Source: an uncultured bacterium | Lineage (GTDB): Bacteria; Verrucomicrobiota; Verrucomicrobiia; Verrucomicrobiales; V1-33 | Length of the DNA: 64,000 nt | NCBI GenBank assembly: GCA_903936775.1 | Contig: CAIZWU010000273.1 | Location: 18,030 to 82,029 of the forward strand | Reading direction: 5' to 3' | Shown: positions 4,538 through 63,993 of the stretch, piece by piece | Layout: each line of letters opens with the position of its first letter | Position numbering within the stretch: position 1 is the stretch's first letter | Program-made: the position numbers and the translations under genes | The notes under the pieces: generated by a model | The model's database searches: none | Told to the model about the DNA's origin: nothing | Seen by the model: only the letters and a program-made list of their open reading frames with translations

Positions 4538-4556
4538 AAAAGTCTGGAAAAGGGAT

Positions 4557-8420: not shown

Positions 8421-8434
8421 TCATCGATTCTATT

Positions 8435-8656: not shown

Positions 8657-8742
8657 TCTTTTCCGATTCTCGCAAAAGCCTGCCGACCGTGTGCCGGGTC
8701 GGCAGGCTCCTTTAACACGGCACTCCCCCTTATACCGACAGA

Positions 8743-9081: not shown

Positions 9082-9085
9082 CATC

Positions 9086-9487
9086 ATGCGCCGCGAGTTT
9101 GTTCTTCCCTCAAAGGACGTGCTCCACCTGGATTCGCTGGGCCTGCCGTGGGAAACTGTCGGCCGTCCGCAGCAGGGTGGAGCACATGTTCTTATCCACC
9201 AATTCAGGGTGCCTCCGGGATACCATGTGGAGGCCGCCACCGTGGCTCTGCGGATTGAGCCGCTTTATCCTGACGTGCAGATCGATATGGCCTACTTCAA
9301 CCCCGCCCTCTCCCGGACGGACGGAAAAGGAATCCATCAAATTGTGGCTGAGAGCATTGATGGCCAGCTTTTCCAGCGGTGGTCCCGGCACCGCACCACG
9401 GCAAACCCGTGGCGTCCGGGGATCGACTGTCTCGCCACCCATCTTGGCCAAGTTGAACACTGGCTGACCAACGAATTGACCCGATGA
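9086..9487 (+). CDS. Prokaryotic E2-like protein (Prok-E2 family E-like)
   Basis: Internal ATG at 9086, 4 nt after the Ubl stop. Motifs PPGYHVEAATVALRIEPLYPDVQIDMAYFNPAL...FQRWSRH...WRPGIDCLATHL fit the family pattern (fP..yP....D.fy..P.l......wq.wSrH...WrPg.D.l.tHl). Contains a single Cys. Confidence 0.7.
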   Translation: MRREFVLPSKDVLHLDSLGLPWETVGRPQQGGAHVLIHQFRVPPGYHVEAATVALRIEPLYPDVQIDMAYFNPALSRTDGKGIHQIVAESIDGQLFQRWSRHRTTANPWRPGIDCLATHLGQVEHWLTNELTR

Positions 9488-10692: not shown

Positions 10693-11036
10693 ATTGGCTT
10701 CGCAAATTACTGATCTGGCTCCGGGGGATATTCGCCAGGAAACGGCAACATCTCATCCCGTGTCGGGACGTATCCGCCTTGCCACAGAAGCTCGCGCCAC
10801 ACACACTCTATGTCATCGGTCAAAACGGGCACCGGTGGCACGTCGCCATGATCTGTCCTTGCGGATGCCAAGCTACCCTGTTCATGAACCTGCTGCCGGA
10901 TGAGGAGCCATACTGGACTCTCACTGAGCACGAGAATGGCAGCGCCTCACTACATCCCTCCGTATGGCGTAACATTGGCTGCCGGAGCCATTTCTTTCTC
11001 CGGCAAGGCACCATTCAATGGTGCCGCGATGAGTGA
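10689..11036 (+). CDS. DUF6527-like metal-binding protein
   Basis: Start MNWLRK at 10689 with an ATGA overlap on the E1 stop. Motifs WHVAMICPCGCQATLFMNLLPDEEPYWTL...GSASLHPSVWRNIGCRSHFFLRQGTIQWC match my recollection of the DUF6527 signature (CPCGC ... SL.PSiW...GC.SHF....G.I.WC). Confidence 0.7.
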   Translation: MNWLRKLLIWLRGIFARKRQHLIPCRDVSALPQKLAPHTLYVIGQNGHRWHVAMICPCGCQATLFMNLLPDEEPYWTLTEHENGSASLHPSVWRNIGCRSHFFLRQGTIQWCRDE

Positions 11037-49300: not shown

Positions 49301-52017
49301 CCCTGACCTCCTCCACCGACCGCATTACGGAAACTTCCACCACCGCCCAGATCCTCACCATCAACCCTTGGCGGGTCACCACCACCGAAGTTTATGCCGT
49401 TGGGGGCAGCAGCACCAAAACTCTGGCCGGGACCTCCCGCACTCAGCTCGCGGGATTCACGGGCTATCAGACCTCCGCCAACGAACGGCTGGACCCTTCC
49501 GGCAATATCACCCGGAATTCGGTGACGGTGGAGCGCGGAGCCAAACTGGCCGTTTCCACTCTCGTCCGTCCGGGTGCCAGCAACAACGCCACTTCCACAA
49601 CTTATTACGGCCTGCTGCAGCGGCAGCATGAATCCGGCTCCAGCGGCGATATCGTTTACGGTTACGACACCCTGGCCCGGTCCACCTCCGTCAAACAGCC
49701 CCGTCACGCCAATGCGGCAGCGACGGTTTATGAAGCCAATAAATCCCGTGTTGCTTCCAAGGCGGACGCTGCGGGAAATTCCACCTCCTACACTTACGGA
49801 CCTTCAGAGTCAGGGGCCGGAACAGGATTGGTCACCGTCATCACCGCTCCCGACAGTACCACCACCACGTCTTTCGGCTACGATCTGCTGAACCGCCGCA
49901 CTCTTGTGTCCGGCACCGGCACTTACCCCGTGGGTTACGAATACACCGCCTACGGCGAACTTTGGAAAATGAAAACCTGGCAGAGCGGCACTCCCCCCAT
50001 GGGGGGCGATGAAACCACTTGGGGTTATCAAGCTTCCACCGGTCTACTGGTGAGCAAAACCGACGCCGCAGCGAAAACCGTGGGCTACACCTATGACAAC
50101 GCCGGGCGTCCGCTCACCCGATCCTGGCACCGGGGGGTTTCCTCCACCTATTCTTATAATTCCTTTGGACAAATTTGGGAGAGCACTCATTCGGATGGCG
50201 GGATCACTCCCGGGAGCACCTTCATTTACGACCGCCTTGGACGTCCCGCCACCACCACCCAGGTCGGCGGGCATTCCTGGGCCTATACCTACGATGCCTC
50301 CACTCTCCGCCCTGACACCGAAACCATCACCTACAACACCGGCGCCAGCACTTTGACCCGCGTGATCGACCGCAGTTTTGACAGCCTGCTGCGACCCACC
50401 GGGTGGCAGCTCAAAAACGGCGGCACCAGCGAGTATGATTTCACTCGCACCTACGAATCGGCCGCCTCACGTCCTTACAGCTTCACCGGCGGAGGTTCGT
50501 TTTTCAGCGGTTCGGGCCCCTCGTTCAGTTATGCCTACATGTCCGCCGCTCCCAGCCTCGTTCAGGGCATCACCAGCGGGGCCACCGTCAGCACCTACAA
50601 TGCCTGGGAAACCAACCGCGATGTGCTGGACTACAAGCAGAATACTTTTGGCGCTTCCATCATTTCAAAGTATGATTACGCCGTAAACAACATGGGCCGC
50701 CGCAGCGGATTGGCCGAGACCGGCAGCGCCTACGCCAGTTCCCCCTCCGTCGAGTGGGGGTATAATTCCCGCGGGGAAGTCACTCTGCACGACCACACCA
50801 CTGCCGCCTATGAGTCGGTTTATGAATACGACACCATCGGAAACCGCACCAAGGCGGCAGGCGGCACCACCCTCCCTGGCAGCCCCAATCACGCGGTCAA
50901 TACCCTCAACCAATACACCTCCATCGGCGGCGTCAGCCCCGGCTACGATGATGACGGCAACCTGACCAGCGATGCCGGCGGCAACACCCACGGATCCGCC
51001 CGGACCTATCAATGGGATGCGGAAAACCAGCTCCGCCAGGTCAACTTTGGATTGGTCGCCGCCTACCGTTATGACCCGCACGGCCGCCGGATTTCCAAAA
51101 CGGCCGGTGGCGTCACCACATGGTTCATCTACGACGGCTGGAATCTGGTCGCGGAATACCAGGGCAGCGCTTTGACCCGCACCCACCTTTGGGGACTGGA
51201 TCTCAGTGGAACAACGCAAGGGGCAGGGGGCGTCGGTGGCCTTCTCTGCACCAGCATAGGCGGCACCAAATATTACCCGCTCTACGACGGCAACGGGAAC
51301 ATATGCCAGTATATTGATGGGTCCGGCGGCATCGCCGCCCAATATGAATACAGTCCGTTCGGCCACCTGCTCAACCCACCGGCCTCCGGCTCCATTCCCG
51401 CCTCGCTCAACTTCCGGTTCTCCACCAAGTTCAATGATTCCGAGACGGACTTTTATTACTATGGGTATCGGTATTATTCCTCTTGGATGGCAAGATGGTT
51501 GAATCGTGATCCAATTGAAGAAAGCGGAGGTTCTAATCTTTACGTAATGATTATGAATGACGCCGTCGATTTAGTTGACGTGCTAGGTCAGCAAATGTTC
51601 AATCCGTCAGGAATTAACCTTGCCCCTGCATATTCCAAAGAAGCGGCAGCCGCGGCATACCGCAAAGCAGCAACACCCGCCAAAAAACCTGGAGGATGCG
51701 GCTCCTCTACCGATACATGGGGAGGTGATTGGATGGTTCCAGATAAGCCATTCGGATATGACTTCTACTCCGCGTGCGAAACTCACGACAAGTGTTATGA
51801 AACTTGCGGTGCCCGTCAAGCAGATTGCGAAAATAATTTTCTTAAAGATATGTTGGCTTCATGTCCTGATCATCGCTTATTTGAAATGGTGACCAGGTCT
51901 ATGCACCCCGGCACCAGACTGTGTCAGGCGCTAGCAAAAACATATCATTCCGCAGTGGCTGGAGGCGGAAAAGCTTCGTTCGCTGCTGCTCAAAAATCAG
52001 CCGGATGCTGTCCGTAA
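46372..52017 (+). CDS. RHS/YD-repeat polymorphic toxin with Sec signal and PLA2-like C-terminal domain
   Basis: Signal peptide MIFKLPASAALALAFVTGSSSTLHA. Dozens of YD-type repeats (YTYD.aGRp, Y.YD..G.L). Core terminus RYDPHGRR...YYGYRYYSSWMARWLNRDPIEESGGSNLYVMIMNDAVDLVDVLG, the RHS cap cleavage-type motif, followed by a distinct 140-aa tail. Confidence 0.9.
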   Translation: MIFKLPASAALALAFVTGSSSTLHAANPPIPIPLGKVMQSIAIGGNAPPPVRPCWNTSGKIPVLLWPGAPPGAIWFGPIPVCAKPTPKTGPKSSGAKSGQIPEPPIADGPSGNRACPGHVDGYQCAGDSGSGPGIGGSLRERAFIDIAPNQPGLGIGELTYYVEEPKLNFGSPEHLAFNSILNMEAHYAVVTPGFSRYTIFQPDGSSILFNLSDTIPPSKPYAKGLPALSADASSQAGVTWTNSSGAFVNKPALPATLGDRLSQFVPGYGWVHFPITGGLANGFTTITGRVYDWSASSLSAVMGVEIIRKLPGSGYGVNGLRDSGFLRQIKTPAGLLDVVPLTSRSFIISQYAASQVGLKSGDLYAVTGNAVFSIKFEAPSSPGLLTTTRSLGTEKYTTNHTVSISGTASTWTQMHTNGPFQFRRILNTPTYGSTRNSTWKAKLLAAPGMTISPTGPDDYTLTNISQDFFPTSSVQTFNWSGSPIITTRSQTFPSVVGLTGTTTDTTTGVNTSSTYDTDKRLTQTTVNTPVPSGGGSTPSSSTQDYGYTLTADEPNQPFDFRPRSSTVKYGSDIIQQEYFAYPIVSGEYVEIHEISVTPGAAFGSGGLRTVSTYYGTGTNKGRPRQHRATDGTLTTYTFADQAGGELLATVTANLTAAGLPVSGSSTRTIVMLDVRGLPTKITNACYLNTGAWKDFEEFNCTWDTTGNPKTTERKDLISTQVRVLEEREWDGVRLTKLTDEQGVVTEYEYYPETVIPWKVFRKSVAASGSYPAQEEILTTFTGTYTMDAQQLPLRTETIATTTPGSGGPGLTLTESSIKDPLGRSVSSKDTDGNTTSWTYSSDRSTVTTTLPNDGTKVEVSAPNGDLLRITGTAVVPAYYYRAAISGGGTTDTVYTGVDSSVGGTRYETTERDIARRTVKVKTPTYSGGTAETVNAYNSLGQLTLVTATGQPATIYEYDSTGDLFRTTVSGDNATSTLTSSTDRITETSTTAQILTINPWRVTTTEVYAVGGSSTKTLAGTSRTQLAGFTGYQTSANERLDPSGNITRNSVTVERGAKLAVSTLVRPGASNNATSTTYYGLLQRQHESGSSGDIVYGYDTLARSTSVKQPRHANAAATVYEANKSRVASKADAAGNSTSYTYGPSESGAGTGLVTVITAPDSTTTTSFGYDLLNRRTLVSGTGTYPVGYEYTAYGELWKMKTWQSGTPPMGGDETTWGYQASTGLLVSKTDAAAKTVGYTYDNAGRPLTRSWHRGVSSTYSYNSFGQIWESTHSDGGITPGSTFIYDRLGRPATTTQVGGHSWAYTYDASTLRPDTETITYNTGASTLTRVIDRSFDSLLRPTGWQLKNGGTSEYDFTRTYESAASRPYSFTGGGSFFSGSGPSFSYAYMSAAPSLVQGITSGATVSTYNAWETNRDVLDYKQNTFGASIISKYDYAVNNMGRRSGLAETGSAYASSPSVEWGYNSRGEVTLHDHTTAAYESVYEYDTIGNRTKAAGGTTLPGSPNHAVNTLNQYTSIGGVSPGYDDDGNLTSDAGGNTHGSARTYQWDAENQLRQVNFGLVAAYRYDPHGRRISKTAGGVTTWFIYDGWNLVAEYQGSALTRTHLWGLDLSGTTQGAGGVGGLLCTSIGGTKYYPLYDGNGNICQYIDGSGGIAAQYEYSPFGHLLNPPASGSIPASLNFRFSTKFNDSETDFYYYGYRYYSSWMARWLNRDPIEESGGSNLYVMIMNDAVDLVDVLGQQMFNPSGINLAPAYSKEAAAAAYRKAATPAKKPGGCGSSTDTWGGDWMVPDKPFGYDFYSACETHDKCYETCGARQADCENNFLKDMLASCPDHRLFEMVTRSMHPGTRLCQALAKTYHSAVAGGGKASFAAAQKSAGCCP
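51589..52017 (+). other. C-terminal toxin domain of the RHS protein: phospholipase A2-like (group III/bee-venom-type motifs)
   Basis: YSACETHDKCYETCG (C-x-T-H-D-x-C) and DCENNFLKDMLASC, comparable to bee-venom PLA2 ACCRTHDMCP ... CDCDDKFYDCL. There are 9 Cys in about 140 aa. GC content drops: my hand count of line 51541-51600 is 25/60. Confidence 0.5.
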
Positions 52018-52279: not shown

Positions 52280-52337
52280 TGATTCGTATCCGTCAAGCGT
52301 AGCCCTGTTGATCCGTGTTTGACTGGAAGGGGGTTTT

Positions 52338-53946
52338 TCAGGGGGCCGGAGTTTCTGCGGGTGATTGCCGGTCCGCCGCCCATCCATGGGGAGTGAGGGC
52401 TCTGAGAGTTTTGGTGGTTTGGGCAGGGAGGGCCAGACGGGTGAACAGATCCGTCAGGTAGGACTGGGCGTCGATTCCGGCCCGGTGGCAGTTGCCGATG
52501 AGAGTGTAAAACAGGGCGGCGCGTCCGCCGCTTTTGGGATCGCCCATGAACAGCCAGTTTTTCCTGCCGATGGCGGTGGGCCGGATGGCATTTTCGACAA
52601 GATTGTTATCGATCATCACCCGGCCGTTCTGGAGGAACACAAGGAGTTTGTCCCACTGGCCGAGGGTGTAGGTGATGGCCTCACCTGTCAGGCTTCGGGG
52701 CAGATGTTTGCGCCGGACCACGAGATCGTCGAGCCGTGCTTTGATTTGCCGGAGGATGGGAAGGCTGTGGGTTTTGCGTTCGGCCCGGATGGTGGCGGGC
52801 CCGGCGCGGCAATCGCGCAGACGGGTTTCGATGTGATAGAGTTTCTGCATCTGCAGGAGGACCCAGGCGGCATCTTCCCCTTCGGCTCTGGCGTCGTAAA
52901 AGTAGCGTCGCGCATGAGCCATGCAGCCCGCCAGCTGGATGGAATGTCCCTTCTCCGCGCGGTTTTTGACAAAGCGGTTATATGATTTCCAGCCGTCACA
53001 CTGGATGATGCCCCGGTAGTCCGCCGGGACGATTTTTTCGAGACTGTCCGCCCCGCGCCCGGTGCGCCAAGCGAAGTAGCTCAGGTTCCTCACGGGGTTG
53101 TGGAACAGCCAGCAGTAGCCGGTGCCGCAGACGCCTTTTCTGTCCGGGTCCTGGTATTTCACCGGGGTTTCGTCCACCTGGACATAACCGTCCGCGAAGA
53201 CTTCGTCCTTGGTGGCAACGAGGATGAGGCCGCTGGCCTCGGCAGCCATGCCGGCCCAGCCGCAAAGGGTCTGGCGGGAGAGCGGGACCCCGGCGCGGGC
53301 GTAGAGTTGCTCGATCCGGTAATACGGCAGGTGCTGTTCGAAGCGCAGGACGAGGGTGTTGGCAAGGAGGCGCGGCGTGGCGATGCAGCGGTCCTGGAGC
53401 AGATGCAGCGGCGCGGTGATGGGGGCTTGGAAAGGGTGGTCGACCGTTGGGATGCACGATGATGCGCACACAAAAATGCCCGGGAATGTAGTCGAGGAGT
53501 TTGGTCTCCTCGCTGGCCCCGGTGGCGCGCCAGGCTCCGGGGTCGGCTTCCACTTCCGGAGGCGTCAGGACGGTGGTGGTCGAAGGAAGGTTTCCGATGA
53601 GCTCGGCCAAGCTGCGCTTTTTCCTCACCGGCGCAGGTGACGGACCCGGGGCGGCCGGAGTAGCGTCAGGACCAGGGTCTCCGGCGGCGGGTTCCTCCAC
53701 AGGTGGAGTGGCGGCGGCCGCTTCCTGGGCAAAGGTGTCGAAAATGAGCTGCAACTGGCCGGGATTGAGCTTCTCGGAAGAGCGGCCGAAGAGTTTGCGC
53801 GACAAGGCGTCGATCTTGAGCCGCAGCACGTGTTTTTCCTGCCGGAGCCGCTCCACTTCCTCCTGAAGCCCCTTGAGGTTCTCGGTTAACGACGCCACCT
53901 GTCCTTCGAGCAGGACTTCGCGGGCAGTGGGTTCGCAGGTCAGCAT
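52338..53946 (-). pseudogene. tnpC: IS66 transposase TnpC, split by a frameshift near 53450
   Basis: The N-terminal part is ORF 52996..53946. It has a leucine zipper (LTENLKGLQEEVERLRQEKHVLRLKIDALSRKLFGRSSEK) and EETKLLDYIPGHFCVRIIVHP, then degenerates into Pro/Arg-rich nonsense. The DDE body continues in another frame as ORF 52338..53471 (TVDHPFQAP...LPYYRIEQLYARAGVPLSRQTLCGW...VQVDETPVKY...CWLFHNP). A single-nt indel around CATCCCAACGG would join them. Confidence 0.75.
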
Positions 53947-54037
53947 AAGGCGGCAGGCGCGCCCGGCAAAGCCATAGTGCCCGTGCTGTCAATAACTCTT
54001 TGCGTAACTTGCTATAAAAAATATCTCCCGAGGGCTC

Positions 54038-54392
54038 TCAGGCCCGTTCATACCAGCCACGCGGCTTTGCGCCGTGCATGTCGATGCCGTCCGTCAGCAT
54101 GGCGAAGGCCTCGGGGTTGAGGGCCAGTTTGGTTTGCCCGTCCGCCGCGGCCCGGGGCCAGAAAAAAGTCCCGGCCTCAAGCCGTTTTGTCAGGATCCAA
54201 ACGCCAGTTCCATCCCAGTAGAGCACCTTGAGGAGTCGGCGGCGCTTGTTGGTGAAGACAAAGAGGGCTCCGGTTTTCACCTCCTCTTGGAGCCGCCCGC
54301 TGACGAAGGGCATGCAGGGTATTGATCCCCGCCCGCATGTCGCAGGGATCCAGCGCGATGAAGATGCGCAAGGCACCGGAAAAACTCAACAT
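54038..54392 (-). pseudogene. tnpB: IS66 Orf2 (TnpB), frameshifted
   Basis: The N-terminus MLSFSGALRIFIALDPCDMRAGINTLHA (ATG 54392) is in one frame. The conserved remainder FVSGRLQEEVKTGALFVFTNKRRRLLKVLYWDGTGVWILTKRLEAGTFFWP is in another (ORF 54038..54376). The shift occurs near 54310. Confidence 0.7.
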
Positions 54393-54800
54393 GGCGCGCT
54401 GGAGGCGAGCGCTTGAATGATCCGCACCGCCAGCTCTGCCTGCCGCCCGTCCGCCACCAGCAGCCGCGTCCCGCAGCGCAGTTCCAACCAGGGCCGGCCC
54501 TCGATCGGCCTGAGGATGGACCGGGCCGGGCATCACTGCCTCCATCAGACGGACGCCGGGAACCAGCCGCCGTGATGCTTTGAGAGCCGGGGCCGCCATC
54601 TGGTAATCGCCCCGCTCATGGCGGCGGCGCTGAATCCATGAGGCGAAGGTCTGATTTTGCAGTCCCGTCATCCGCGCAAACGCCGCCCCCTTCAGCCCGC
54701 TGCGTTCAAACTCATCCAGAATCGCCTCGCGTTGTTCCGCACAATAACTCACGCGGCCCACCGCGTCCCGTTTCAATATCTTCAAGGCAGTTGCTCCCAT
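54393..54800 (-). CDS. tnpA: IS66 Orf1 (TnpA-like HTH), no stop before tnpB
   Basis: RVSYCAEQREAILDEFERSGLKGAAFARMTGLQNQTFASWIQRRR is the typical IS66 Orf1 HTH. The reading frame runs straight into the tnpB N-terminus without a stop, which is atypical and consistent with decay or sequence error. Confidence 0.55.
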
Positions 54801-54871
54801 AAGAGCCGTAGTTTATGCCTCCAGCTACGCCGCGCACCATCCTTCCAACGGGGCTACGTTTGACGGATACG

Positions 54872-56370
54872 TTCCTCCAGCAGGGCGACCCGCTCTTTCA
54901 GATAAGCCTCCGCGTCGGCATTCACAGACAGCGGGATGGTCCCCGTTTTCTTCAGCTCCCCGAAAGCCGGAGCGGGAATGAGGTAATCCTCGAAATCCTT
55001 GAACTGCCGGGATCCCCTGACCCAGATGTCCCCGGAGCGGAGCGCGTTTTTCAGCTCGCACAAAGCGCAGATCTCGTAGTTCCGTCGGTCTAGGCCCTGA
55101 GCCGTGCGCACCGGCTTGTCCCAGCGCTTTTTGATAAAAGCCGTGGGGGCGTCCGCAGGCAGCTCCTTGTGCGAACCGGCGTTGAGCGCACGGATTTGCT
55201 CCACAGCCTCCATTACCGCTTTCCCGGCGGGAGCGGCCTTCAGCGGTGGAACCTCCAGCAGGGCCGGGGCATAACGGCGGACGGTTGGCCAGTTCTCGGC
55301 CAGCAGGTGGATGAAATCAAACTCCTCCGGCTGGGAAAGCTTGCCAGTCTCCGCGACACTGGCCGCAAACTCATCCCATGGGAGCACGGTCTCGATGGCC
55401 GCGAAGGCGTCGACTCCCTCCGCTTTCGCTTTGACGAGCGCCCGGCCAATTTTTCCGTATAACAGGAGCTGATCGTTGATCCGCCGTCCGGACTGCTGGA
55501 AACGCTGCTGATGTTTGTGGCGGGCCGCGTTGAGAAGCTTCCGATGATGCGGTCATGCAGATCGATGATCTGATCAATCACCGTCGCCGTGCCCTCGATA
55601 GCCAGCGCCACCAGTGTGGCATATTTCCGCTGGCTTTCACATTTGCCAAGGTCGCGGGAAGTCATCTGTCCTCCCTCGCGTGCCATTTTCAGCAGCCGGT
55701 TCTGGTGAACCCGCCGGTCCAGACCATCCGGAAGCCCCAGAGAGTGAAATCCCGCAGACGCTCAATGTGTTACAGCATGTGCCGCGAATTGGGTTTCACG
55801 GGCGACTGCCGCAGCCGCTACAGCCAAGTGATCCGGGTGCCAGGCTTCAGTTCCAGCCAGCCATCCAGTTTTGCCCGCTGGGCTTCTGACAAAGGGTCGG
55901 CGAGAACCGCGCAAATCTGACGGGTGGCCCGGGTGATGGCCTCCGACGCCAGCCTTTCCACAACCTCAATGGGCGGTATCATCACTTTCAACAGCCCGGG
56001 CCCAGCGGAAATCCCCCAGCTCGAATGGCCTCAAACCAAGATAGGCCCGGAGTTCCACAAGGTGTTCCCGGCGCGTTTGCCCGCGGGAGGCATACTGCGG
56101 CCAGCACTGCGCTTCCACACCAAGCTGGCTGCCGATCCACCGGATCATGACATCGCTGATCTGCATTCCCATCTCCAGACCCCGGCCCGGAAACCGCAGT
56201 AGACAAAGCTGCACCGCGAAGCCCAGCTGATTGGCATCTCCTCTCCGCTGACGGATCAGGGAAAGGTCGGTCTCGCTGAAGGTATAGCGGCGGGCAAACT
56301 CCTCTTCCGATTGGGGCGGCTGAAGGAGAGTGGCACGCTCAGCGGGGGAAAAGAAGCTGCGTCTCGGCAT
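54872..56370 (-). pseudogene. tnpA: Tn3-family transposase, N-terminal ~500 codons only, multiple frameshifts, truncated by the IS66 insertion
   Basis: From ATG 56370: MPRRSFFSPAERATLLQPPQSEEEFARRYTFSETDLSLIRQRRGDANQLGFAVQLCLLRFPGR, the DUF4158 N-terminus of Tn3 transposases. Later pieces lie in other frames ([30 protein letters not shown]; [43 protein letters not shown]...RRNYEICALCELKNALRSGDIWVRGSRQFKDFEDYLI). The coding sequence is cut at the IS66 IR (54871/54872). Confidence 0.75.
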
Positions 56371-56429
56371 TTCAGCCTTTAAACCGTTCCGGAAACCGCA
56401 CAAGACAGCCTGCTCAGGGTCCCTGAGGG

Positions 56430-56467
56430 CTTAGCGTGCAATTTTTTCCGTTTTCCCTGAGGACCCC
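56430..56467 (-). repeat. Tn3-family (Tn21-subgroup-like) 38-bp terminal inverted repeat
   Basis: The minus strand reads GGGGTCCTCAGGGAAAACGGAAAAAATTGCACGCTAAG. Compare the Tn21 IR as I recall it, GGGGTCGTCTCAGAAAACGGAAAATAAAGCACGCTAAG. It lies 97 nt upstream of the tnpA start with the outer GGGG end at 56467. Confidence 0.75.
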
Positions 56468-56550
56468 TGATTGTTCTGAGGGAAAATCTTGCCCATCCGC
56501 TTAAATCCTCTAGACTACAGTTTTGCCTTAATATTCAGATTTCTAAGATT

Positions 56551-57132
56551 GTGCCCGTGACGCTACAGCAGTTCAATTATTTTGCCCAATATGTGCTGCC
56601 TTCCCTTGATGGCCACTGGATGAAGGATTCCATCGCGATCACCTACCTCGAAGGAAATTTTCCTACTCCTCAAAAAGAGCTGTTGCCAAAAAACTGTGGT
56701 CCAGCGGCTTTGTCCGCGCTTTTTGGGTTAGGCGTGCTCCAATATTTGCCGGGGCATGCCTTGGAGATGTGGCAAGGGCTGAATCGTCGCGACATGGAGA
56801 AAGCCTTGCTAGAACTCGATCTGCCTTTTGATCGTCTCCACAGCAGTTGGCCGGTTTTCGGGTTGTGCCTGATCCAATGGCAAGGGCCTTGGCTGGAACG
56901 ATGTTTTAATGGTTCAAGCTTGGCCTACACTCACTGGGTTGCAGTGGTTGAAAATTACGTCTTTGACACCAATTGGGGTGAATGGCTTCCTAAGAATGTT
57001 TGGGAGGAATGCGTCGTTTATAACTTACTTGCAGCTCATAAGGGAAACGAGGGATGGAAACCACTTACAGCCTATGAATTTCACCGTCGGTCGGACTACG
57101 CCACCAACTCAAGCTGCTCATCACGGAGATGA
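56551..57132 (+). CDS. Papain-fold cysteine peptidase, C39-like
   Basis: KNCGPAALSALFG (Cys motif, compare C39 Q..DCG.AAL), THWVAVVENYVFDTNWG (His motif, compare HfVVl, followed by D/N). GTG start at 56551, with an alternative ATG at 56620. Its 3' end overlaps the convergent Cys-rich gene by 37 nt. Confidence 0.55.
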   Translation: MPVTLQQFNYFAQYVLPSLDGHWMKDSIAITYLEGNFPTPQKELLPKNCGPAALSALFGLGVLQYLPGHALEMWQGLNRRDMEKALLELDLPFDRLHSSWPVFGLCLIQWQGPWLERCFNGSSLAYTHWVAVVENYVFDTNWGEWLPKNVWEECVVYNLLAAHKGNEGWKPLTAYEFHRRSDYATNSSCSSRR

Positions 57133-58220
57133 GAAACATCATGGAGATTGGCCCTCGAATAAATAAATTGCCGATGGTGGAAAATATTGGCGGCCAGTCT
57201 TTGGCTTAAACATTCTGTGGCAGGACCCTGGAAAAGCCTCCACCGAGGCCGAAGTTTCGCTGATTGGAATAAGTTGAAACGATGCACCGTCTTCATAAAT
57301 GGGGTGCTATCGACGACAGTGAAATCTTCGAATAAGGCTTTCAATTCTTGGATCCTGCCAGTTCCTCCAAAAACTATTGGATGGATTTTGCGCCCAAGGC
57401 TTTGCATCATTTGCCCCAAATTTTTGAGGAACTTGGTGCGTCTGGCATCATCCCTTAGGCCAGTTTGAAATTCGAAGGCGACGTAATGGATCTGCGGCAG
57501 GGTCTTCATTATCTGCTCCCACTTGCCCCAATCCGAAATAGTGCTCGCATTAATATGGGGGACTGTGGGAACGCCAGCATCTCCCATGCGGTCAACCAGC
57601 CTGAAAATCCGCGAAAGGCTATAAAGGGAGTTTACCCTTGGGGTGTCCAGCATGAAGGAATAATTTGGCACTGTCATTCCAAGCAAATTTAGCTTGCTGA
57701 CTTGTTGCAAAAGGTTTTTGAGTTGGTGATCACGCCAAAAATCTTCAATGAGCTGGTCAGGGGCAATGCACGAAAGTAAGACCTGCGTTGAGCGGGCGAG
57801 TTTTAATGTAAAACAGAGTTCATCGTGAGTCTCAAATGCAATTTCCAGACCACGACGGTTCTTTCTGATAATGGCGGCCAAAGGTATCGCGACAACCCGT
57901 TCTGAGAGCACATGACGGCGGTTACCCGCGTGATGAATATTGGGGACGTAGTATGGCAACTTACGTGCGGTGCGAGGTGTAACGCAAATGCTTGGTGGAG
58001 TGCAGATTCCCCCTACGTCATCCCACGCTTCGTCAAAACCTATGGGAGTGCAAGGACACAAGCAGTCACAGGGATTGAGCTTGCAGTAAAGGTCACATCT
58101 CTGAAAGCATCCCTTGCTATAATCAGGGCCGTCCAAACCGCCGCAGTCGCGCAGGAAAACACATTCCGCACAGGATGAACAAGGCGGTGCAGGATTGTTT
58201 CTGAAAGCTTGATTGGGCAT
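57096..58220 (-). CDS. Cys-rich N-terminal module (13 Cys in 79 aa) fused to a ~290-aa alpha/beta domain of unknown function
   Basis: C14-x2-C17-x2-C20-x5-C26, then C38-x3-C42-x3-C46-x4-C51-x-C53-x-C55-x-C57, then C73 and C79. The remainder alternates hydrophobic strands and helices (VVAIPLAAII, VLLSCIAP, LLGMTVPNYSF, YVAFEFQTG, IHPIVFGG, FTVVDSTPF). Last gene of a four-gene minus-strand cassette. Confidence 0.6.
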   Translation of the reverse strand: MPNQAFRNNPAPPCSSCAECVFLRDCGGLDGPDYSKGCFQRCDLYCKLNPCDCLCPCTPIGFDEAWDDVGGICTPPSICVTPRTARKLPYYVPNIHHAGNRRHVLSERVVAIPLAAIIRKNRRGLEIAFETHDELCFTLKLARSTQVLLSCIAPDQLIEDFWRDHQLKNLLQQVSKLNLLGMTVPNYSFMLDTPRVNSLYSLSRIFRLVDRMGDAGVPTVPHINASTISDWGKWEQIMKTLPQIHYVAFEFQTGLRDDARRTKFLKNLGQMMQSLGRKIHPIVFGGTGRIQELKALFEDFTVVDSTPFMKTVHRFNLFQSAKLRPRWRLFQGPATECLSQRLAANIFHHRQFIYSRANLHDVSHLRDEQLELVA

Positions 58221-58229
58221 GACGCGACC

Positions 58230-58616
58230 TCACTGGTTTTTAAATGGTTTGAATGGCCGGACCGAGAAATTACCTGAAATATCCGGGAGGTCGGTTAATA
58301 GCACTGTCATAATCCCGGTATGGACGTTGTTGCTTTTAATGAATGCTGCGAGCCTTGCGGCATCTTCAAACTGAATGGCACCTATCTCTTGCCCGTTCTG
58401 GGAAACTTTCATTTCTGATTCGCTGAAAACTCTGATCAATAGCCTAAGCCCTTTGACTAATGCCGCCCCATTATCTGTAAGGTGGCACTGGAAAATTTGA
58501 CCCGATAAATCGGGCTGGGCATTCCGAAGCAAGTCCATGTCGAATTCTTGATTCCGACTGGCATCTCGGCGCACCTCAAAAGCGGCCCCTTTATCGCGCA
58601 TAAAGTCTAATCCCAT
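58230..58616 (-). CDS. Hypothetical 128-aa protein (cassette gene 3)
   Basis: The internal ATG at 58616 (MGLDFMRDKGAAFEV...) gives a 10-nt overlap with the upstream stop. The track ORF (to 58787) would overlap by 181 nt. A 9-nt gap separates it from the downstream gene. No motif recognised. Confidence 0.5.
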   Translation of the reverse strand: MGLDFMRDKGAAFEVRRDASRNQEFDMDLLRNAQPDLSGQIFQCHLTDNGAALVKGLRLLIRVFSESEMKVSQNGQEIGAIQFEDAARLAAFIKSNNVHTGIMTVLLTDLPDISGNFSVRPFKPFKNQ

Positions 58617-59236
58617 AGTCGATGTTTTTTTGAAATTGATGAGTAAATCCAGAATTTGCCCTCTCTTCTTCTTTGCACGAGCCGTTTGCTGAACAATTCC
58701 AAGAGACGGTTGCTCCACGCATTTATCGTTATTTTTTCCGTGGATAAGGTGTGAAGCCGTTGAGCCGTGATCTCGCCTTGGGAACACACCAGTTCCAGAG
58801 TCGAAGCCAGAAACAAATCTAACGGACCTAGGATTTGAGCAGACTCAATTTCTCCCTTTTCCCATCTGTCCATAAGCAGAAAACTCTCTCCTCTCTGCGT
58901 GGCAAAATCTCGTATTTCCTCGGCTACATCGCGGGAACAGTTTGAGATAACGGGGAAAAATGGAAAAGGTCGTATGGCCCAAGCTTCACTACTGCCTGAA
59001 GGGGTGCCCATGACATCCGCTCGACCGCATAGCACCGACCATAGAAGTGAAGCTCTAAGGTAGCTGCCATTGGTATGATCGACCCCCTCAAAGTTAAAAA
59101 TCACCATCGTGGGCAACTGCTGGGTTCGGCCAAAAACCGGCATGATTTGCTCCAAATCTTTCCGAGCTTCCAGAGCGCCCAACGCATGAGGCGCATGGAC
59201 GTGAATTTGAAGATTGTTTCCGAACACAGGCGTCAA
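58607..59236 (-). CDS. STAS-like (DUF4325-like) domain plus C-terminal winged-helix protein (cassette gene 2)
   Basis: TMVIFNFEGVDHTNGSYLRASLL resembles the DUF4325/STAS-like pattern (vvlDF.gV..itssF.del). The C-terminus GEITAQRLHTLSTEKITINAWSNRLLELFSKRLVQRRREGKFWIY looks like a MarR/ArsR-type wHTH. Confidence 0.55.
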   Translation of the reverse strand: MTPVFGNNLQIHVHAPHALGALEARKDLEQIMPVFGRTQQLPTMVIFNFEGVDHTNGSYLRASLLWSVLCGRADVMGTPSGSSEAWAIRPFPFFPVISNCSRDVAEEIRDFATQRGESFLLMDRWEKGEIESAQILGPLDLFLASTLELVCSQGEITAQRLHTLSTEKITINAWSNRLLELFSKRLVQRRREGKFWIYSSISKKHRLWD

Positions 59237-59257
59237 TAAGCCAAACGAATGATCGGG

Positions 59258-60127
59258 TCAATCCAAAATTATCTTTTCTTCCACATTACCCGAAATTGCC
59301 GTCGAAATTGTAATCTGACACCCCCTCATGAAAGGGGACCGACGATAGGCCGCATCCCTGCTGCCTGGTTGCTGGGTTAATTCAACACAGCTTGAGCCGC
59401 TACGAATTCGGATCATCGAATTGTGGTCGATTAGAGAGCTGAAAATTTGGCGGAAGCCTTCCCCTCCCCCCATTCCGGTTTTACGGCTGGCATGTTCGTC
59501 AACGATAGCGTGTAACGCCTCCTCATCGCTATGCAAATGATCCCATGAGGGCGACGTTTTTAGACTTTCGAGACAGCCCATCCCTAAGTCGGAGATAATC
59601 ATTGAAAAATAATTGCGTTCAATCTGGCAGCCAATTAATCCGGTGAATTTACCGGCACCCTCAAGCTCGCTGTGCTCAATGATGTTCAGGGTCATTTCTA
59701 CAAGAACCCCCATTAATGCTGTCAGATACTTCTGAGGCCATCCTAGATTTTTGCCGATCCTCACGCACCCTTGCTGGAATTCCGAATACTGAAGCTGGGA
59801 AAGCGACCGACGATCTCCGATTGCGCGGGTATCAATTCTGAAAAACCCTAACACAGAATCCATTGTGGATGAGTCAATTCTATTTGGCCGCTCTCTCCGC
59901 CAACACGCGTCAACCTTCTTCCACGGACTCTGGATGGCAGCATCCTCAATTCCTTGCCAAAATAACTGTGCGTTGGCTGAGTTGTCCTGAATTGTCCGGT
60001 AAAGTTCGACCAATCCCGGCAACGTCGCTCCTCCAAAGTATTCGGGAGTGAAATCCGCATTTTTCCTCTCCAGCAAAATATCCCTTACGGCATCGGCATT
60101 TCTTGTGGTCAAAATCGGTCGTGACAT
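59258..60127 (-). CDS. GHKL-superfamily ATPase, SpoIIAB/RsbW-like (cassette gene 1)
   Basis: N-box VEMTLNIIEHS (E-x3-N-x3-H), G1 box ISDLGMGCLESL (DxGxG) and G2 box KTGMGGGEGFRQI. The preceding ~130-aa N-terminal region is unassigned. I prefer the ATG at 60127 over the TTG at 60148 used by the track. Confidence 0.65.
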   Translation of the reverse strand: MSRPILTTRNADAVRDILLERKNADFTPEYFGGATLPGLVELYRTIQDNSANAQLFWQGIEDAAIQSPWKKVDACWRRERPNRIDSSTMDSVLGFFRIDTRAIGDRRSLSQLQYSEFQQGCVRIGKNLGWPQKYLTALMGVLVEMTLNIIEHSELEGAGKFTGLIGCQIERNYFSMIISDLGMGCLESLKTSPSWDHLHSDEEALHAIVDEHASRKTGMGGGEGFRQIFSSLIDHNSMIRIRSGSSCVELTQQPGSRDAAYRRSPFMRGCQITISTAISGNVEEKIILD

Positions 60128-60316
60128 TGCGGCGGAACCACTCAACAACGATTATTATTAATGAATCTCCAGGGATAATTTGGTATCGAAGCGAACTCGG
60201 TGGTGTGGATTTATAATTTTGGTTTGACCATCTCCCGTGCTATTTGAGGCTGAAGTTTGAACTGAATCGGATTTGGTCAGATTGAATCAGCCAACGCGGA
60301 GGATCATTTTACAAAG

Positions 60317-60344
60317 TAACCCAACTTGACATTAAGCTGGGTAA
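60317..60344 (+). promoter_or_regulatory. Imperfect inverted repeat with embedded TTGACA upstream of abiEi
   Basis: TAACCCAACTT-gacatt-AAGCTGGGTAA, with 9/11 arm matches. TTGACA lies at 60326-60331, about 30 nt upstream of the abiEi ATG. AbiEi antitoxins are known to autoregulate through promoter repeats. Confidence 0.3.
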
Positions 60345-60361
60345 TAGTGTAACGTGACGGC

Positions 60362-60967
60362 ATGTCAGCGAGTGTTTCCAAGAATGAGGTGCTGAGCCTT
60401 GCGGGGAAGAAAATCCTTCAATCGAAGGAGCTGGAAGCGCGTGGGGTGTCGCGGATGCAACTGCGGCGGCTCGTGGCGGAGGGGGTGCTGGAACGGACTC
60501 AGCGGGGGCTTTACATCGCGAAGGATTTTCCAGTGGATGCCCATATTTCTCTGGCGGAGGTGGCGGTGCGGTCGCCGAAAGCGGTGATTTGCCTGCTTTC
60601 GGCGTTGAGGTTCCACGAACTTACGACGGAGAATCCTTCCGATGTTTATATCATGCTGCCGGTAGGGACCAAACGGCCTCGGATGACCAATCCCCGGCTG
60701 GAAGTGTCGTGGTCCAAGCCGGAGATGCTGGTTTCAGGCATTGAAGAGCATGTCATCTGCGGGGTGACGGTCAGGATCACCAGTCCGGCCCGGACGGTGG
60801 TGGACTGCTTTAAATACCGGAGCAAGGTGGGGCTGAATGTGGCGGTGGAGGCACTTCACGATGCCTGGCGGAAAAAGAAGGCGACGGCGGATGACCTGTG
60901 GAAACAGGCGGCACTCTGCCGGATGGGAAATGTGATGAGACCTTACTTCGAAAGCCTGACCGCATGA
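60362..60967 (+). CDS. abiEi: AbiEi-family type IV antitoxin (transcriptional regulator)
   Basis: N-terminal wHTH (ELEARGVSRMQLRRLVAEGVLERTQRGLYI), then AVICLLSALRFHELTTENPSDVYIMLP, as in AbiEi_4 domains. ATGA overlap with the toxin gene. Confidence 0.8.
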   Translation: MSASVSKNEVLSLAGKKILQSKELEARGVSRMQLRRLVAEGVLERTQRGLYIAKDFPVDAHISLAEVAVRSPKAVICLLSALRFHELTTENPSDVYIMLPVGTKRPRMTNPRLEVSWSKPEMLVSGIEEHVICGVTVRITSPARTVVDCFKYRSKVGLNVAVEALHDAWRKKKATADDLWKQAALCRMGNVMRPYFESLTA

Positions 60968-61896
60968 ATGACCGGAAGGATGCCCTCAAAAACGTGGCGG
61001 CCTCGGTGCGGGATCGTCTCAAGACGGTCATGGCGTCCACGGGGCAGGACTACAACACGCTGCTGACCCGTTATACGATTGAGCGGTTTCTTTTCCGGCT
61101 TTCGGAATCCGAATACCGGAATCGTTTCGTGCTCAAAGGGGCGTTGCTATTTGCGCTGTGGAACGAAACCCCGCACCGGGTGACGCGGGATCTGGATTTG
61201 TTGGGCTTTGGCGACTCCTCCTCCGAAGAATTGGAGGCGGTCTTTGCCAAAATCTGCGCCTGTCAGGTGCCGGATGACGGGGTGATTTTTGACAGCGCCT
61301 CCGTCAAGGCGGAACCGATCCGCGCTCAGGAACTTTATGTCGGGGTGCGGCTGAATATCCAAGGAATGATCGGCAGCGCCCGGACGCTGCTCCAGATTGA
61401 TGTGGGCTTCGGAGACGCCACCGCGGTGCAGCCGGTCGAGGTGGAGTTTCCCAGCCTGCTGGAAGATATGCCGGCGGCGAGGATCCGGGCCTATCGGATG
61501 GAAAGCGCCTTGGCTGAAAAGTATGAAGCGGCCGTGACCTTGGGACTGCTGAATTCCCGGATGAAGGACTACTACGATTTTTACTTTCTGGGAAACCACA
61601 GCGCCTTCGACGGGCAAGAACTGGCCGATTCCATCCGCGCCACTTTTGAACGGCGCGGAACAGTTCTCCCTGTAGCAACACCCGCCGGATTCAGTGCCGC
61701 CTTTTGGAATGATCCGGGGCGTCAGGCCATGTGGAAGAGTTTCTGGAGAAAATCCGTGAAGCTCGATCCGATGCTGAGTTTGGAGCAGGTGGTTTCGTTT
61801 GCTGCCGGGTTCCTGCTGCCCCCCGCGTTGGCGGCAGCAGAAGGGCGGCCCTTCAGTAGCTTATGGAAGCCGGGTGGCAGTTGGAAGGAGAAGTGA
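60964..61896 (+). CDS. abiEii: AbiEii/AbiGii-family nucleotidyltransferase toxin
   Basis: From ATG 60964: MNDRKDALKNVAASVRDRLKTVMASTGQDYNTLLTRYTIERFLFRLS...FVLKGALLFALW...RVTRDLDLLGFG (NTase GS/DxD region), then YRMESALAEKYEA. Confidence 0.85.
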   Translation: MNDRKDALKNVAASVRDRLKTVMASTGQDYNTLLTRYTIERFLFRLSESEYRNRFVLKGALLFALWNETPHRVTRDLDLLGFGDSSSEELEAVFAKICACQVPDDGVIFDSASVKAEPIRAQELYVGVRLNIQGMIGSARTLLQIDVGFGDATAVQPVEVEFPSLLEDMPAARIRAYRMESALAEKYEAAVTLGLLNSRMKDYYDFYFLGNHSAFDGQELADSIRATFERRGTVLPVATPAGFSAAFWNDPGRQAMWKSFWRKSVKLDPMLSLEQVVSFAAGFLLPPALAAAEGRPFSSLWKPGGSWKEK

Positions 61897-62315: not shown

Positions 62316-62957
62316 CTAAAGCGGCTGGTCAATCCGGAGCATGACGGTTGGGGTGTTGGTCCCCTCCGCCCGGAAGGCTCCGGGGGGAAGGGGAATCCAT
62401 GATTTAGCGAAATGGCGTAATGCTAATTCGCGTGAATTACCCGCCATGCAGATGGCGGCCAGTCGTCCGCCGGGTTTCAGAAACTTCATGGCGTGGAGAA
62501 TGTGGCGGATGTCCGCCCGCGCGTGGAACGGCGGGTTCATTACGATGGCATCGAACAAGCCCAATTCCGCCGGCGCGAGCTTGAGGAAATCCGCTTGGCG
62601 GATGCTGATCCCGGCCCGGTCCTGTTGGAAAAGGACCCCTGCGCAGGCCGGGGCGATTTCCACGGCGACCACGGCGGAAGGAGCTTTCGGGGCAAGGGCG
62701 TCCAGCAACCGCCCAAGTCCCGCCGATGGCTCCAAGACGCGTGCCCCCGGCTGTAGATCAAGCAGCGCCACCAGCTCGATCGCCAAGTCGGCGGGCGTTT
62801 GGAAAAGTTGGTAGGCGCTGACAGCTTGAGGGGCGGTGCCGTCCTCATGGCGGGTTTTCAATTTGTCGAATCGTGGGCGGATTTCTGCCATGGCATAGCC
62901 TGCCGCGTCATTTTCCATCCGCAGGGTGTGAAGGCGGTGCATAGGGTGGGGTTTCAT
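62316..62957 (-). CDS. SAM-dependent DNA methyltransferase (NPPF motif; N6-adenine/N4-cytosine class), orphan
   Basis: Motif I RVLEPSAGLGRLLDAL and motif IV FDAIVMNPPFH. 213 aa. No adjacent restriction endonuclease is recognisable. Confidence 0.75.
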   Translation of the reverse strand: MKPHPMHRLHTLRMENDAAGYAMAEIRPRFDKLKTRHEDGTAPQAVSAYQLFQTPADLAIELVALLDLQPGARVLEPSAGLGRLLDALAPKAPSAVVAVEIAPACAGVLFQQDRAGISIRQADFLKLAPAELGLFDAIVMNPPFHARADIRHILHAMKFLKPGGRLAAICMAGNSRELALRHFAKSWIPLPPGAFRAEGTNTPTVMLRIDQPL

Positions 62958-63000
62958 GGAATAGAGGAAAAAAGATTCAACTACATCGGCGGGAGGAACC

Positions 63001-63993
63001 TCATGCCACGGCGGGGGCCGCGTCCAGTGCTTCGATGGTTTCCCAGACGGCCGCGGGGAATGGCTTCCGGGGTTTATCAGTCAGGATAATAATCCGATCC
63101 GCGCCTCCGAAGGTTTGACCGGAGCTGGTAGAGCGCAGCTTGCACACCGGGGAGCCGACGCGCTTGTTGTGGTCCTCGCGGCTTGAACTCCAAATACCGT
63201 TGCTCTCGCGGTAAAGCTCCGCGTTCCGGCAGAGCCCATGGGTGGCGCTTCTGGCGTAGGTGCCCGCGGCGGCGGCGCTGTATTGGGCCTGGGTGAGGCG
63301 AACGATAGCGGACGGGGCGAAGGAGGGGGTTCCCAATCCCCGCACTTTCGCGCGCGCTGCGTTGGCGTCCTTTTCCCGTTCGTTCCAAATGGCCTGCAGG
63401 CGCTCGGCGTCTTCGTCAGTGGGATTGATGAGAGGGCAGGGGGCGGCTTTGGGTCTGGCGGCTTTCACATCAGTCTTTTTGCTGGCTATCAAGGCGAGGT
63501 CATCAGGAGTGGGGGCGCGGTAGGAACCGCAGTCCAGCCGCTCAATGTTCAAGGTCTGGAAGGTTTCCTTGCCCGTGTTGCCATAGCGGGCGGGGGCCAG
63601 AATTTGGACCGATACCACCCGACCCGTGGCGTTTGATTTATTCACCTTCCAAATTTGGTAACTGCCGATCCAGCCTCCGACTTCCATTTCCAGCAGGGCA
63701 GCGCGGCCGCCTTGGGCCTCCAGCATTTGGTTTTCATAGGCCAGCCGCATTTCGAAGTGTCGTGCCCACTGCATCTTGCGGGAATCTTCGAACTCCGGAG
63801 CCTCGGGATTGATTTTTCCTGCCAACCACAGGTCAGCGGCTTGTTGTCCTGTGATCGGTTTATTGCTATCCGTGAGGTGGAACCATAGTGAGCTTTTTGT
63901 CCCCGTTACAGGGTGCGGGTAGTCGTATCCTCCGGGGGTGTCTCCAGCCAAGCGGGTGGCCAGCGCGGTTTGCACTTCCGGGGTGACTGGCAA
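63001..63993 (-). CDS. Hypothetical 330-aa protein (start may lie beyond the right window edge)
   Basis: The track ORF begins at a TTG and the frame is open up to nt 64000. No motif assigned. It is co-directional with the methyltransferase and the stop-to-start gap is 43 nt. Confidence 0.5.
   Translation of the reverse strand: MPVTPEVQTALATRLAGDTPGGYDYPHPVTGTKSSLWFHLTDSNKPITGQQAADLWLAGKINPEAPEFEDSRKMQWARHFEMRLAYENQMLEAQGGRAALLEMEVGGWIGSYQIWKVNKSNATGRVVSVQILAPARYGNTGKETFQTLNIERLDCGSYRAPTPDDLALIASKKTDVKAARPKAAPCPLINPTDEDAERLQAIWNEREKDANAARAKVRGLGTPSFAPSAIVRLTQAQYSAAAAGTYARSATHGLCRNAELYRESNGIWSSSREDHNKRVGSPVCKLRSTSSGQTFGGADRIIILTDKPRKPFPAAVWETIEALDAAPAVA

Follow-up and report, generated by a model that had tools for sequence, protein, structure and literature searches.

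A stretch of 64,000 nucleotides (nt) of DNA from an uncultured bacterium of the Verrucomicrobiales (contig CAIZWU010000273.1, positions 18,030 to 82,029), referred to here in its full length as the window, carries four tightly packed genes on its minus strand, designated G1 to G4, and a convergent open reading frame (ORF), G5. The four minus-strand genes form a real, widely conserved mobile cassette and are found as one unit in approximately 100 independent loci that belong to several phyla. G1 and G2 encode distant homologs of CapK and CapS, a kinase and a DNA-binding protein that control immune operons, and the Cys-rich protein encoded by G4 is homologous to DUF4417 proteins. By analogy with CapK/CapS and the related VapK/VapS pair, the four genes may represent a single mobile operon that functions as a kinase-gated stress or anti-phage module, a reading to which we assign a probability of approximately 0.55.

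Conservation of the four-gene cassette

The window proteins G1 to G5 give no significant match in Pfam, PADLOC-DB v2 or NCBIfam, and megablast of the island against plasmids gives no match. A word-indexed homolog search with G1 returned solely a 99% identical copy (P0035). The first G4 homologs found show 27–51% identity, and all seven contexts reached through them carry a series of genes of approximately 290, 205, 129 and 375 amino acids (aa). A scan of one genome per species gave 17 loci, mostly in Verrucomicrobiota, the others in Myxococcota, Bryobacteraceae, Pseudomonadota and Falsiroseomonas. G1 and G2 accompany G4 in 15 of these, and hidden Markov models (HMMs) made from the cassette proteins detect the pair in 20 of 22 non-redundant loci when the window is included. 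The two exceptions are L025, a locus of only 2.6 kb, and L027, which holds a truncated G4. The latter was considered as an alternative architecture and rejected, as it is a truncated G4 beside a serine recombinase. G3 is present in 17 of the 20 genome or assembly loci that bear G1 and G2, with a small ORF at the same place in two more; G5 is present in 13 of the 20, always convergent and immediately 3′ of G4.

An independent metagenome search was started from G2 rather than G4 and gave 380 relatives, the best 80 loci of which were examined. G1 lies upstream of G2 in all loci with room for it (45/45), G4 lies downstream of G2 in 46/46 and G3 is present in 53/57. G5 is found in 27/36 of the metagenome loci, and overall in approximately 70% of loci. 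Exceptions to the position of G1 before G2 are L028, L108, L110, L111 and L118, where G1 is placed after G4; the order G2-G3-G4-G1 is seen in the first four of these and on an Aminobacter plasmid. Thus the four-gene set survives rearrangement. Synteny spans Verrucomicrobiota, Myxococcota, Acidobacteriota, Alphaproteobacteria and Planctomycetota. An earlier note on this DNA, made from the sequence alone, proposed a conflict system and named a lack of synteny elsewhere as evidence against it; strict synteny of the four genes across phyla was found instead.

Proteins of the cassette

CapK and CapS have been described as 'controllers of adjacent pathways' (Chambers et al., EMBO J 2026; PMC13373217). 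CapK, which consists of helix-turn-helix (HTH), STAS and GHKL domains, is switched on by single-stranded DNA and places a phosphate on Ser54 of CapS, a STAS protein that carries a winged helix-turn-helix (wHTH); phosphorylation breaks the CapS dimer and the adjacent immune operon is de-repressed (PMC13373217). CapKS sits upstream of many different immune operons, with CBASS, Bub, Bil, Thoeris IV, CarolAnn and YegP as named cargos (PMC13373217). The related VapK/VapS pair gates the VapC toxin post-translationally, VapS inhibiting VapC until VapK phosphorylates VapS (PMC13373217). The profiles used here for comparison were made from the capK/capS pair of an E. roggenkampii plasmid and from four divergent pairs.

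G1 begins with approximately 130 aa of an unrecognised fold, followed by a kinase domain at residues ~132–285. It is over this kinase domain only that the G1 family aligns with CapK (hhalign probability 97.8%, E = 6.6e-13). Four of six orthologs match HATPase_c in Pfam (best 1.4e-4) and three of the six match HATPase_c_2 (best 7.8e-5). Residues N148, H152, D180, G184, G222 and G224, which belong to the N, G1 and G2 boxes of the kinase fold (here names of boxes, not of genes), are invariant in 72–80 orthologs. The motifs VEMTLNIIEHS, SDLGMG and GMGGGEGF, on which the earlier note had based its assignment of a GHKL ATPase, are all present, and that assignment is borne out. phmmer of the window G1 against the PDB gives no match. 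The kinase domain also matches phrog_3364, a PHROG family of unknown function (E = 5.7e-10), and therefore related GHKL proteins exist in phage or prophage genomes. G1 is a predicted CapK-like GHKL (Bergerat-fold) Ser kinase with an N-terminal region of its own.

G2 displays an N-terminal STAS-like domain of the DUF4325 type, in which the segment MVIFNFEGVDHTNGSYL is found, and a C-terminal wHTH, the same two domains that had been proposed before. Orthologs weakly match DUF4325, the STAS-like family, and NCBI labels plasmid orthologs DUF4325 or STAS-like proteins; the window G2 weakly matches an ArsR-type HTH. The best PDB match of the G2 profile, also weak, is 9z71, which carries the title 'winged helix-turn-helix transcriptional regulator' and was traced through the literature to CapS, as its crystal structure (PMC13373217). 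The G2 family aligns with CapS over the full length (hhalign probability 97.0%, E = 1.1e-10), with S58 aligned to CapS S54, and the STAS part alone gives a probability of 93%. Ser58 is invariant in 93/93 sequences and is the predicted phospho-acceptor; W174, N176, R177 and L178 of the wHTH are invariant in 94/94. Very probably, G1 and G2 are CapK/CapS homologs that act via phosphorylation of Ser58. The earlier note could match the genes to no named defense system; the control pair can be matched, as a distant homolog of CapK/CapS, and because the pair belongs to this lineage the cassette is less unprecedented than first thought.

G4 contains 13 Cys in its first 79 residues. This count had been made before and is correct, but only about eight of the 13 are conserved among 160 relatives. 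The conserved pattern is C17-x2-C20-x5-C26GG-x11-C38-x3-C42-x3-C46-x4-C51-x3-C55-P, and its eight Cys are conserved at 60–93% in the 160 family members, many of which are N-terminally truncated. The Cys-rich module is a predicted metal or Fe-S binding site. An AlphaFold 2 (AF2) model made with 30 homologs (predicted local distance difference test, pLDDT, 90.5; predicted template modelling score, pTM, 0.89) shows the Cys-rich N-terminal module, with a pLDDT of 85–94, and then alternating strands and helices that form a TIM barrel. The barrel displays a near-invariant polar set, D155, E159, P185-N186-x-S188, R204, E250-F-x-T253-G254, H280 and D304, and of these D155, E159, P185, N186, S188, R204, E250, T253 and G254 are conserved at 97% or better in 160 sequences. 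These near-invariant acidic and polar residues are the signature of an enzyme.

The window G4 matches DUF4417 (PF14386) with E = 0.011 and 15.7 bits, below the Pfam cutoff of 28.9, and 20 of 30 G4 homologs match the model (best 2.1e-7). Alignment of the G4 family with gp98 of phage DalanDe, which combines ParB_N and DUF4417, gives an hhalign probability of 96.4% (E = 1.2e-9), and NCBI labels plasmid G4 homologs DUF4417 proteins. The catalytic core is homologous and the motifs PNYS and (E/Q)FQT are common to both; G4 differs in that it carries the N-terminal eight-Cys module and has a kinase and STAS pair as its partner in place of ParB. Membership of G4 in the DUF4417 superfamily is supported by these profile matches, outside strict Pfam membership. 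We know of no function for DUF4417. The G4 family has no Pfam model of its own, and an exhaustive profile search gave, in clusters of 50% identity, at least 469 members at E ≤ 1e-30 and 1,542 at E ≤ 1e-3. Fusions of ParB and DUF4417 have been reported to be common in phages (bioRxiv 10.1101/2025.10.10.680097).

Genes similar to G4 were also seen on plasmids. On a plasmid of Streptomyces sp. NBC_00582 (L117, positions 3586–10873) a separate ParB_N protein precedes a DUF4417 protein that is Cys-rich, a hypothetical protein of 490 aa and two proteins of the amidoligase family; replication-relaxation genes lie beside them. This gives the G4 superfamily a second context, one on a plasmid. On a Sinorhizobium alkalisoli plasmid (L116) the DUF4417 gene has been annotated with a start that leaves out the Cys-rich N-terminus, the coding sequence for which lies upstream in the same frame, at positions 4960–5180 (LGCRGCKDFGICGG...); this looks like a misannotated start site. 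The 299-aa protein that follows G4 there does not match the G1 HMM. Weak G4 matches are carried by 59 Clostridium plasmid records.

Foldseek of G4 against the PDB places tRNA-guanine transglycosylase (TGT) and DpdA first (7a4x and 7ui4, E = 1.8e-3 to 3.4e-3, template modelling (TM) score ~0.44), and in a fold search of BFVD the top named matches include phage proteins titled 'queuine tRNA-ribosyltransferase'. By sequence, phmmer of G4 against the PDB gives nothing and the G4 profile against the PDB gives noise only, with no TGT. The leading hypothesis, taken from the fold of the model, is that G4 would be a TGT-like base-exchanging or base-excising enzyme on nucleic acid. It is held as a hypothesis and not as a result because the fold signal is weak and there is no sequence link to Tgt. 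That G4 acts on nucleic-acid bases is plausible, at odds somewhat short of even.

G3 shows no consistent match in Pfam, PADLOC, NCBIfam or PHROG, in line with the lack of a recognisable motif noted before; residues M1, G2, F5 and C44 are conserved among its orthologs. Probably it serves G4 as an obligate partner or as an inhibitor. G5, in which the motifs NCGPAAL and THWVAV are found, displays a triad in papain order, with C49 in 38/38, H128 in 43/43 and D139 in 40/43 sequences (Glu in the other three). None of 13 G5 orthologs matches a peptidase Pfam model, G5 has no PDB, PHROG or plasmid match, and a single-sequence AF2 model (pLDDT 38) is unusable. Judged from its motifs, on which the label of a C39-like peptidase in the earlier note was also based, G5 may be a papain-fold thiol enzyme. 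It appears accessory, since the G5 HMM did not detect it in the Myxococcota loci or in the single Alphaproteobacteria genome locus (L028) screened. A 188-aa gene after G4 in L002 was considered as a G5 and rejected; it is unrelated and matched only an HMM built with that gene included.

Locus layout, flanks and neighboring genes

Table 1. Features of the cassette and its flanks, in window coordinates
Feature	Position	Strand	Remarks
G1	59258–60148 (ORF)	−	likely start ATG at 60127, giving 59258–60127, 289 aa
G2	58607–59236	−	209 aa
G3	58230–58616	−	128 aa, internal ATG as start
G4	57096–58220	−	374 aa
G4 N-terminal Cys-rich module	57984–58220	−	residues 1–79
G4 predicted catalytic domain	57096–57983	−	residues ~80–374
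G5	56551–57132	+	193 aa, convergent on G4
Intergenic stretch upstream of G1	60128–60361		shared with the divergent abiEi gene
Tn3-family inverted repeat, outer end	56418–56468		left edge of the low-GC island, read from the sequence
AbiEi/AbiEii type IV toxin-antitoxin/abortive-infection pair	60362–61896	+	Pfam and PADLOC; right neighbor, outside the cassette

A TTG at the 5′ end of the G1 ORF is a possible alternative start but less likely than the ATG, because the 99% identical copy P0035 is also 289 aa long. G1 and G2 are separated by 21 nt, G2 and G3 overlap by 10 nt (ATGGGATTAG), G3 and G4 are separated by 9 nt and the convergent ends of G4 and G5 overlap by 37 nt; the layout of five ORFs in the earlier note, with these spacings, was reproduced throughout. 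The G2/G3 junction reads CGA CTA TGG GAT TAG over ATG GGA TTA GAC, a classic coupling overlap, and together with the short gap between G3 and G4 it suggests co-translated partners. The stretch upstream of G1 is the only non-coding room for a cassette promoter or operator. A scan of its minus strand, itself uninformative, found no sigma-70-like site, and no palindrome is conserved upstream of G1 in 53 loci, with nothing above shuffled controls.

Four metagenome copies (L008–L011) are 99% identical to the window island and have the same Tn3 and AbiE flanks. In these copies an insertion sequence (IS) with a DDE_Tnp_1 transposase (419 aa) lies between abiEi and G1 and leaves approximately 86 nt upstream of G1; there, either the cassette promoter lies within these ~86 nt or the IS drives expression. 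Gene calls gave a truncated G4, as in a pseudogene, in L008, L009 and L011, which was rejected since ORF extraction shows the full 1125-nt ORF intact.

The GC content is 0.46–0.51 over positions 56250–60250, a patch of approximately 48%, and 0.58–0.65 in the flanks. The low-GC island of the earlier note is therefore real, and its figure of about 67% for the flanks was slightly high. The flanks it named are also present. On the left, a terminal repeat of the Tn3 type (GGGGTC... on the minus strand) has its end at approximately 56468 and adjoins a remnant of a Tn3 transposase with a DUF4158 N-terminus at 55966–56403, and the abiE pair gives PADLOC E-values of 4e-71 for AbiEi and 2e-103 for AbiEii.

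Neighbors of the cassette across its loci include AbiE, a pAgo with a DpnII/MboI-like protein, SIR2, TIR and a NERD-kinase, as well as BREX-like PglX or MmeI-type methyltransferases, AAA_13, EMARD and DUF4011 helicase genes, integrases and transposases. PADLOC models match many of 107 neighbor ORFs from 14 further loci, among them SNF2 and DEAD helicases including HmaA (E = 0), a PLD-helicase, RT_UG29 (DRT), the Zorya-type ZorD and PbeA. Plasmid loci carry a KwaB-like protein, a PIN protein and DUF499/DUF1156 genes nearby. The low GC content, the AbiE flank and the defense and mobile-element neighbors at other loci agree with the proposal, made before, of horizontal acquisition and a defense-island setting. 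The cassette is probably a defense or stress module, with odds moderately in its favor.

Other features of the window were recorded in passing. An IS66-family element at 52285–54871, bounded by 26-nt inverted repeats (52285–52310 and 54846–54871), interrupts the Tn3-family transposase gene; its own transposase appears split into two overlapping ORFs. An inverted repeat with a 9-bp stem, ACCCAGCTTAATGTCAAGTTGGGT, at 60319–60342, approximately 20 nt upstream of the abiEi start, was flagged by a terminator scan and may be an AbiEi auto-repression operator. On the minus strand at 62316–63993 a small S-adenosylmethionine-dependent methyltransferase (213 aa) lies beside a 330-aa protein with no Pfam match. 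This pair also travels with the island in the metagenome copies, together with DUF3560-like and Mrr-like genes, which suggests a conjugative-element backbone. An RHS-repeat protein of 1,881 aa, encoded on the plus strand at 46372–52017, has at its C-terminus a domain like phospholipase A2 (PF06951/PF09056, with scores under the Pfam cutoffs). GC content falls to 0.44–0.51 across the last ~700 nt of this gene and just downstream, which is typical of a swapped polymorphic-toxin tip.

Proposed mechanism, alternatives and known systems

If the cassette is a kinase-gated module, an infection or damage signal would activate G1, by analogy with CapK/CapS and VapK/VapS; for CapK the signal is single-stranded DNA. 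Activated G1 would phosphorylate the invariant Ser58 of G2, and phosphorylated G2 would release its target, which may be operator DNA (auto-repression), the G3 and G4 proteins (in the manner of an antitoxin), or both. The output would be G4, a putative metal- or Fe-S-binding TIM-barrel enzyme that may excise, exchange or modify bases in DNA or possibly tRNA, with G3 as its probable obligate partner or inhibitor and G5 as a putative thiol enzyme, often present as an accessory and restricted to one lineage. In its most specific form, a previously undescribed anti-phage or stress system with a CapK/CapS-like switch, a new sensor and an Fe-S enzyme related to TGT/DpdA that removes or swaps DNA or tRNA bases, the proposal is tentative and on balance unlikely.

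Several observations weigh against parts of this proposal. The likeness of the G4 fold to TGT is weak (E ~1e-3, TM 0.35–0.45) and other TIM barrels score close behind. An hhalign comparison of G4 with E. coli Tgt gives no profile signal (probability 0.3%), the C-terminal Zn site of TGT (CxCxxC...H) is missing in G4, where the Cys cluster is N-terminal, and the cassette has neither 7-deazaguanine synthesis genes nor ParB. Residues 1–132 of G1 compared with residues 1–200 of CapK or with STAS profiles give a probability below 1%, in a comparison so insensitive that it also misses the relation of CapK-STAS to CapS-STAS; the G1 N-terminus may conceal a STAS fold. Because this N-terminus is unlike the HTH-STAS region of CapK, with its groove that binds single-stranded DNA, the activating signal of G1 may differ from that of CapK. 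Canonical capKS has palindromes with TTAA half-sites, none of which is conserved in the 53 regions upstream of G1. Since there is also no intergenic room for a promoter or operator between G2 and the cargo, transcriptional control of the cargo by G2 is not evident. The defense-island context, judged without a background rate, is suggestive only.

This bears directly on a purely transcriptional arrangement of the CapKS type, in which G2 dimers would repress the promoter, G1 would de-repress it, and G3-G4, with or without G5, would be independent immune cargo. The CapK/CapS homology, which includes the wHTH with its invariant W-x-N-R-L helix, and the precedent of CapKS pairs that precede many different immune operons (PMC13373217) speak for such control. 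We nevertheless consider it rather improbable, as the pair is never found with other cargo in this clade (46/46; the search pattern of the census was clade-specific and covers this G1/G2 clade), the G2/G3 overlap leaves no cargo promoter region, no operator is conserved and the kinase gene can lie downstream of G4. One integrated four-protein machine therefore fits better. The same tight translational coupling of G2, G3 and G4 would suit a toxin-antitoxin of the VapKSC type, where G2, perhaps with G3, inhibits a toxic G4 and phosphorylation of Ser58 frees it, with abortive infection as the outcome. VapS and VapC provide a precedent (PMC13373217), and antitoxins often have DNA-binding domains for auto-repression. 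However, the wHTH of G2 is complete, which is not so in VapS, G4 does not belong to the PIN nucleases and the role of G3 is left unexplained, all of which makes a toxin-antitoxin doubtful.

G4 might instead install or exchange a base like DpdA, under G1 and G2, as a DNA-modification module of the mobile element (self-marking or anti-restriction) that contains no immune effector. The TGT/DpdA-like fold matches, the ties of DUF4417 relatives to ParB_N among DNA-metabolism genes of phages and plasmids, and the presence of cassettes on conjugative plasmids and beside transposons would agree with this. Yet no precursor-synthesis genes or restriction partner are conserved beside the cassette, the neighbors are mostly defense genes, and a kinase switch of the damage type is better suited to an effector that can be induced than to a modification enzyme that works constitutively; such a module appears quite improbable. 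A housekeeping partner-switching module of the RsbW/RsbV type beside unrelated genes, finally, was named in the earlier note as an outcome that would count against it. The pairing of a GHKL kinase with STAS is the hallmark of these modules, and the best PDB match of the G1 profile is the RsbW-like domain of Rv1364c, which is not significant (E = 0.45). Among the Pfam-annotated neighbors of seven loci and in the window flanks, however, there is no sigma factor or PP2C phosphatase; G3 and G4 are strictly linked to the pair across phyla, the region is of low GC content between a Tn3 end and AbiE, and the pair is closer to CapK/CapS. The housekeeping reading is effectively refuted by the synteny census. 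Of the partner-switching modules that the earlier note gave as background, the pairing of GHKL and STAS stands and the classical sigma-sequestering switch does not, the pair being of the CapK/CapS kinase-repressor type.

The reading of the four genes as one kinase-gated operon gives a well-defined, testable candidate rather than a demonstrated system. In the description of 2026, CapK/CapS is a regulator that can move among known immune operons; the branch found here is divergent and is permanently tied to an effector that is uncharacterised. The different N-terminus of G1 may show how such a kinase switch has been adapted to a further danger signal. Knowledge of the reaction that G4 catalyses could bring to light a new enzymatic means of attacking or marking nucleic acids in phage-host conflict, and could explain the role of the phage fusions of ParB and DUF4417. 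Base swapping by G4, if true, would be the first function for the DUF4417 superfamily, which phages and plasmids carry fused to or beside proteins of the ParB CTPase fold.

Among known systems, TGT and DpdA may share with G4 a TIM-barrel fold and are its best named structural matches in PDB and BFVD. DpdA is a DNA preQ0 insertase, and in the Dpd system this TGT-like protein is paired with the ParB-like DpdB; the pairing parallels that of DUF4417 with ParB and is suggestive. The SpoIIAB/SpoIIAA and RsbW/RsbV pairs resemble what is predicted for G1 and G2: the GHKL kinase acts on a STAS protein by phosphorylating a serine on its helix 2, and by motif reading DFSG..S58 of G2 resembles DLSG..S58 of SpoIIAA. 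The cassette differs from them in the DNA-binding domain of its STAS protein and in its mobile setting.

CapK/CapS is closer. Both systems display a GHKL kinase gene and then a STAS and wHTH gene with an absolutely conserved STAS serine, in mobile defense islands the pair precedes an operon of immune type, and the kinase keeps the N-box Asn (CapK N218, G1 N148) and the ATP-lid glycines (D180xGxG, G222xG224). In G1, however, the HTH-STAS N-terminus of CapK, with Trp68 that contacts single-stranded DNA, is replaced by the unrelated region of ~130 aa, and the cassette leaves no room for an operator between kinase and STAS genes or between the latter and the cargo. Canonical cargo is interchangeable, whereas here it is fixed as G3-G4 in all 46 metagenome loci and may be followed by the kinase gene. 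This cargo is outside those named for CapKS, and DUF4417 or transglycosylase is not mentioned in the supplementary tables of the CapKS paper, in which 'unknown' entries are unmapped. VapKSC is likewise a compact, tightly coupled operon in which a CapK-like kinase, without an HTH, and a STAS protein gate an enzyme effector. VapC is a PIN nuclease, while G4 is a Cys-rich DUF4417 TIM barrel with no PIN match; VapS has a short C-terminal helix where G2 has a full wHTH, and the cassette contains the extra protein G3. We regard the cassette as a CapKS-like switch that has become hard-wired and combines a putative new sensor domain with a presumed effector that is novel, widespread and as yet uncharacterised. 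Because it lacks room for the two operators described for CapS and a conserved upstream palindrome, has a fixed cargo and allows its kinase gene to follow that cargo, the comparison points to an integrated four-protein module that stands between the transcriptional logic of CapKS and the protein-protein logic of VapKSC.

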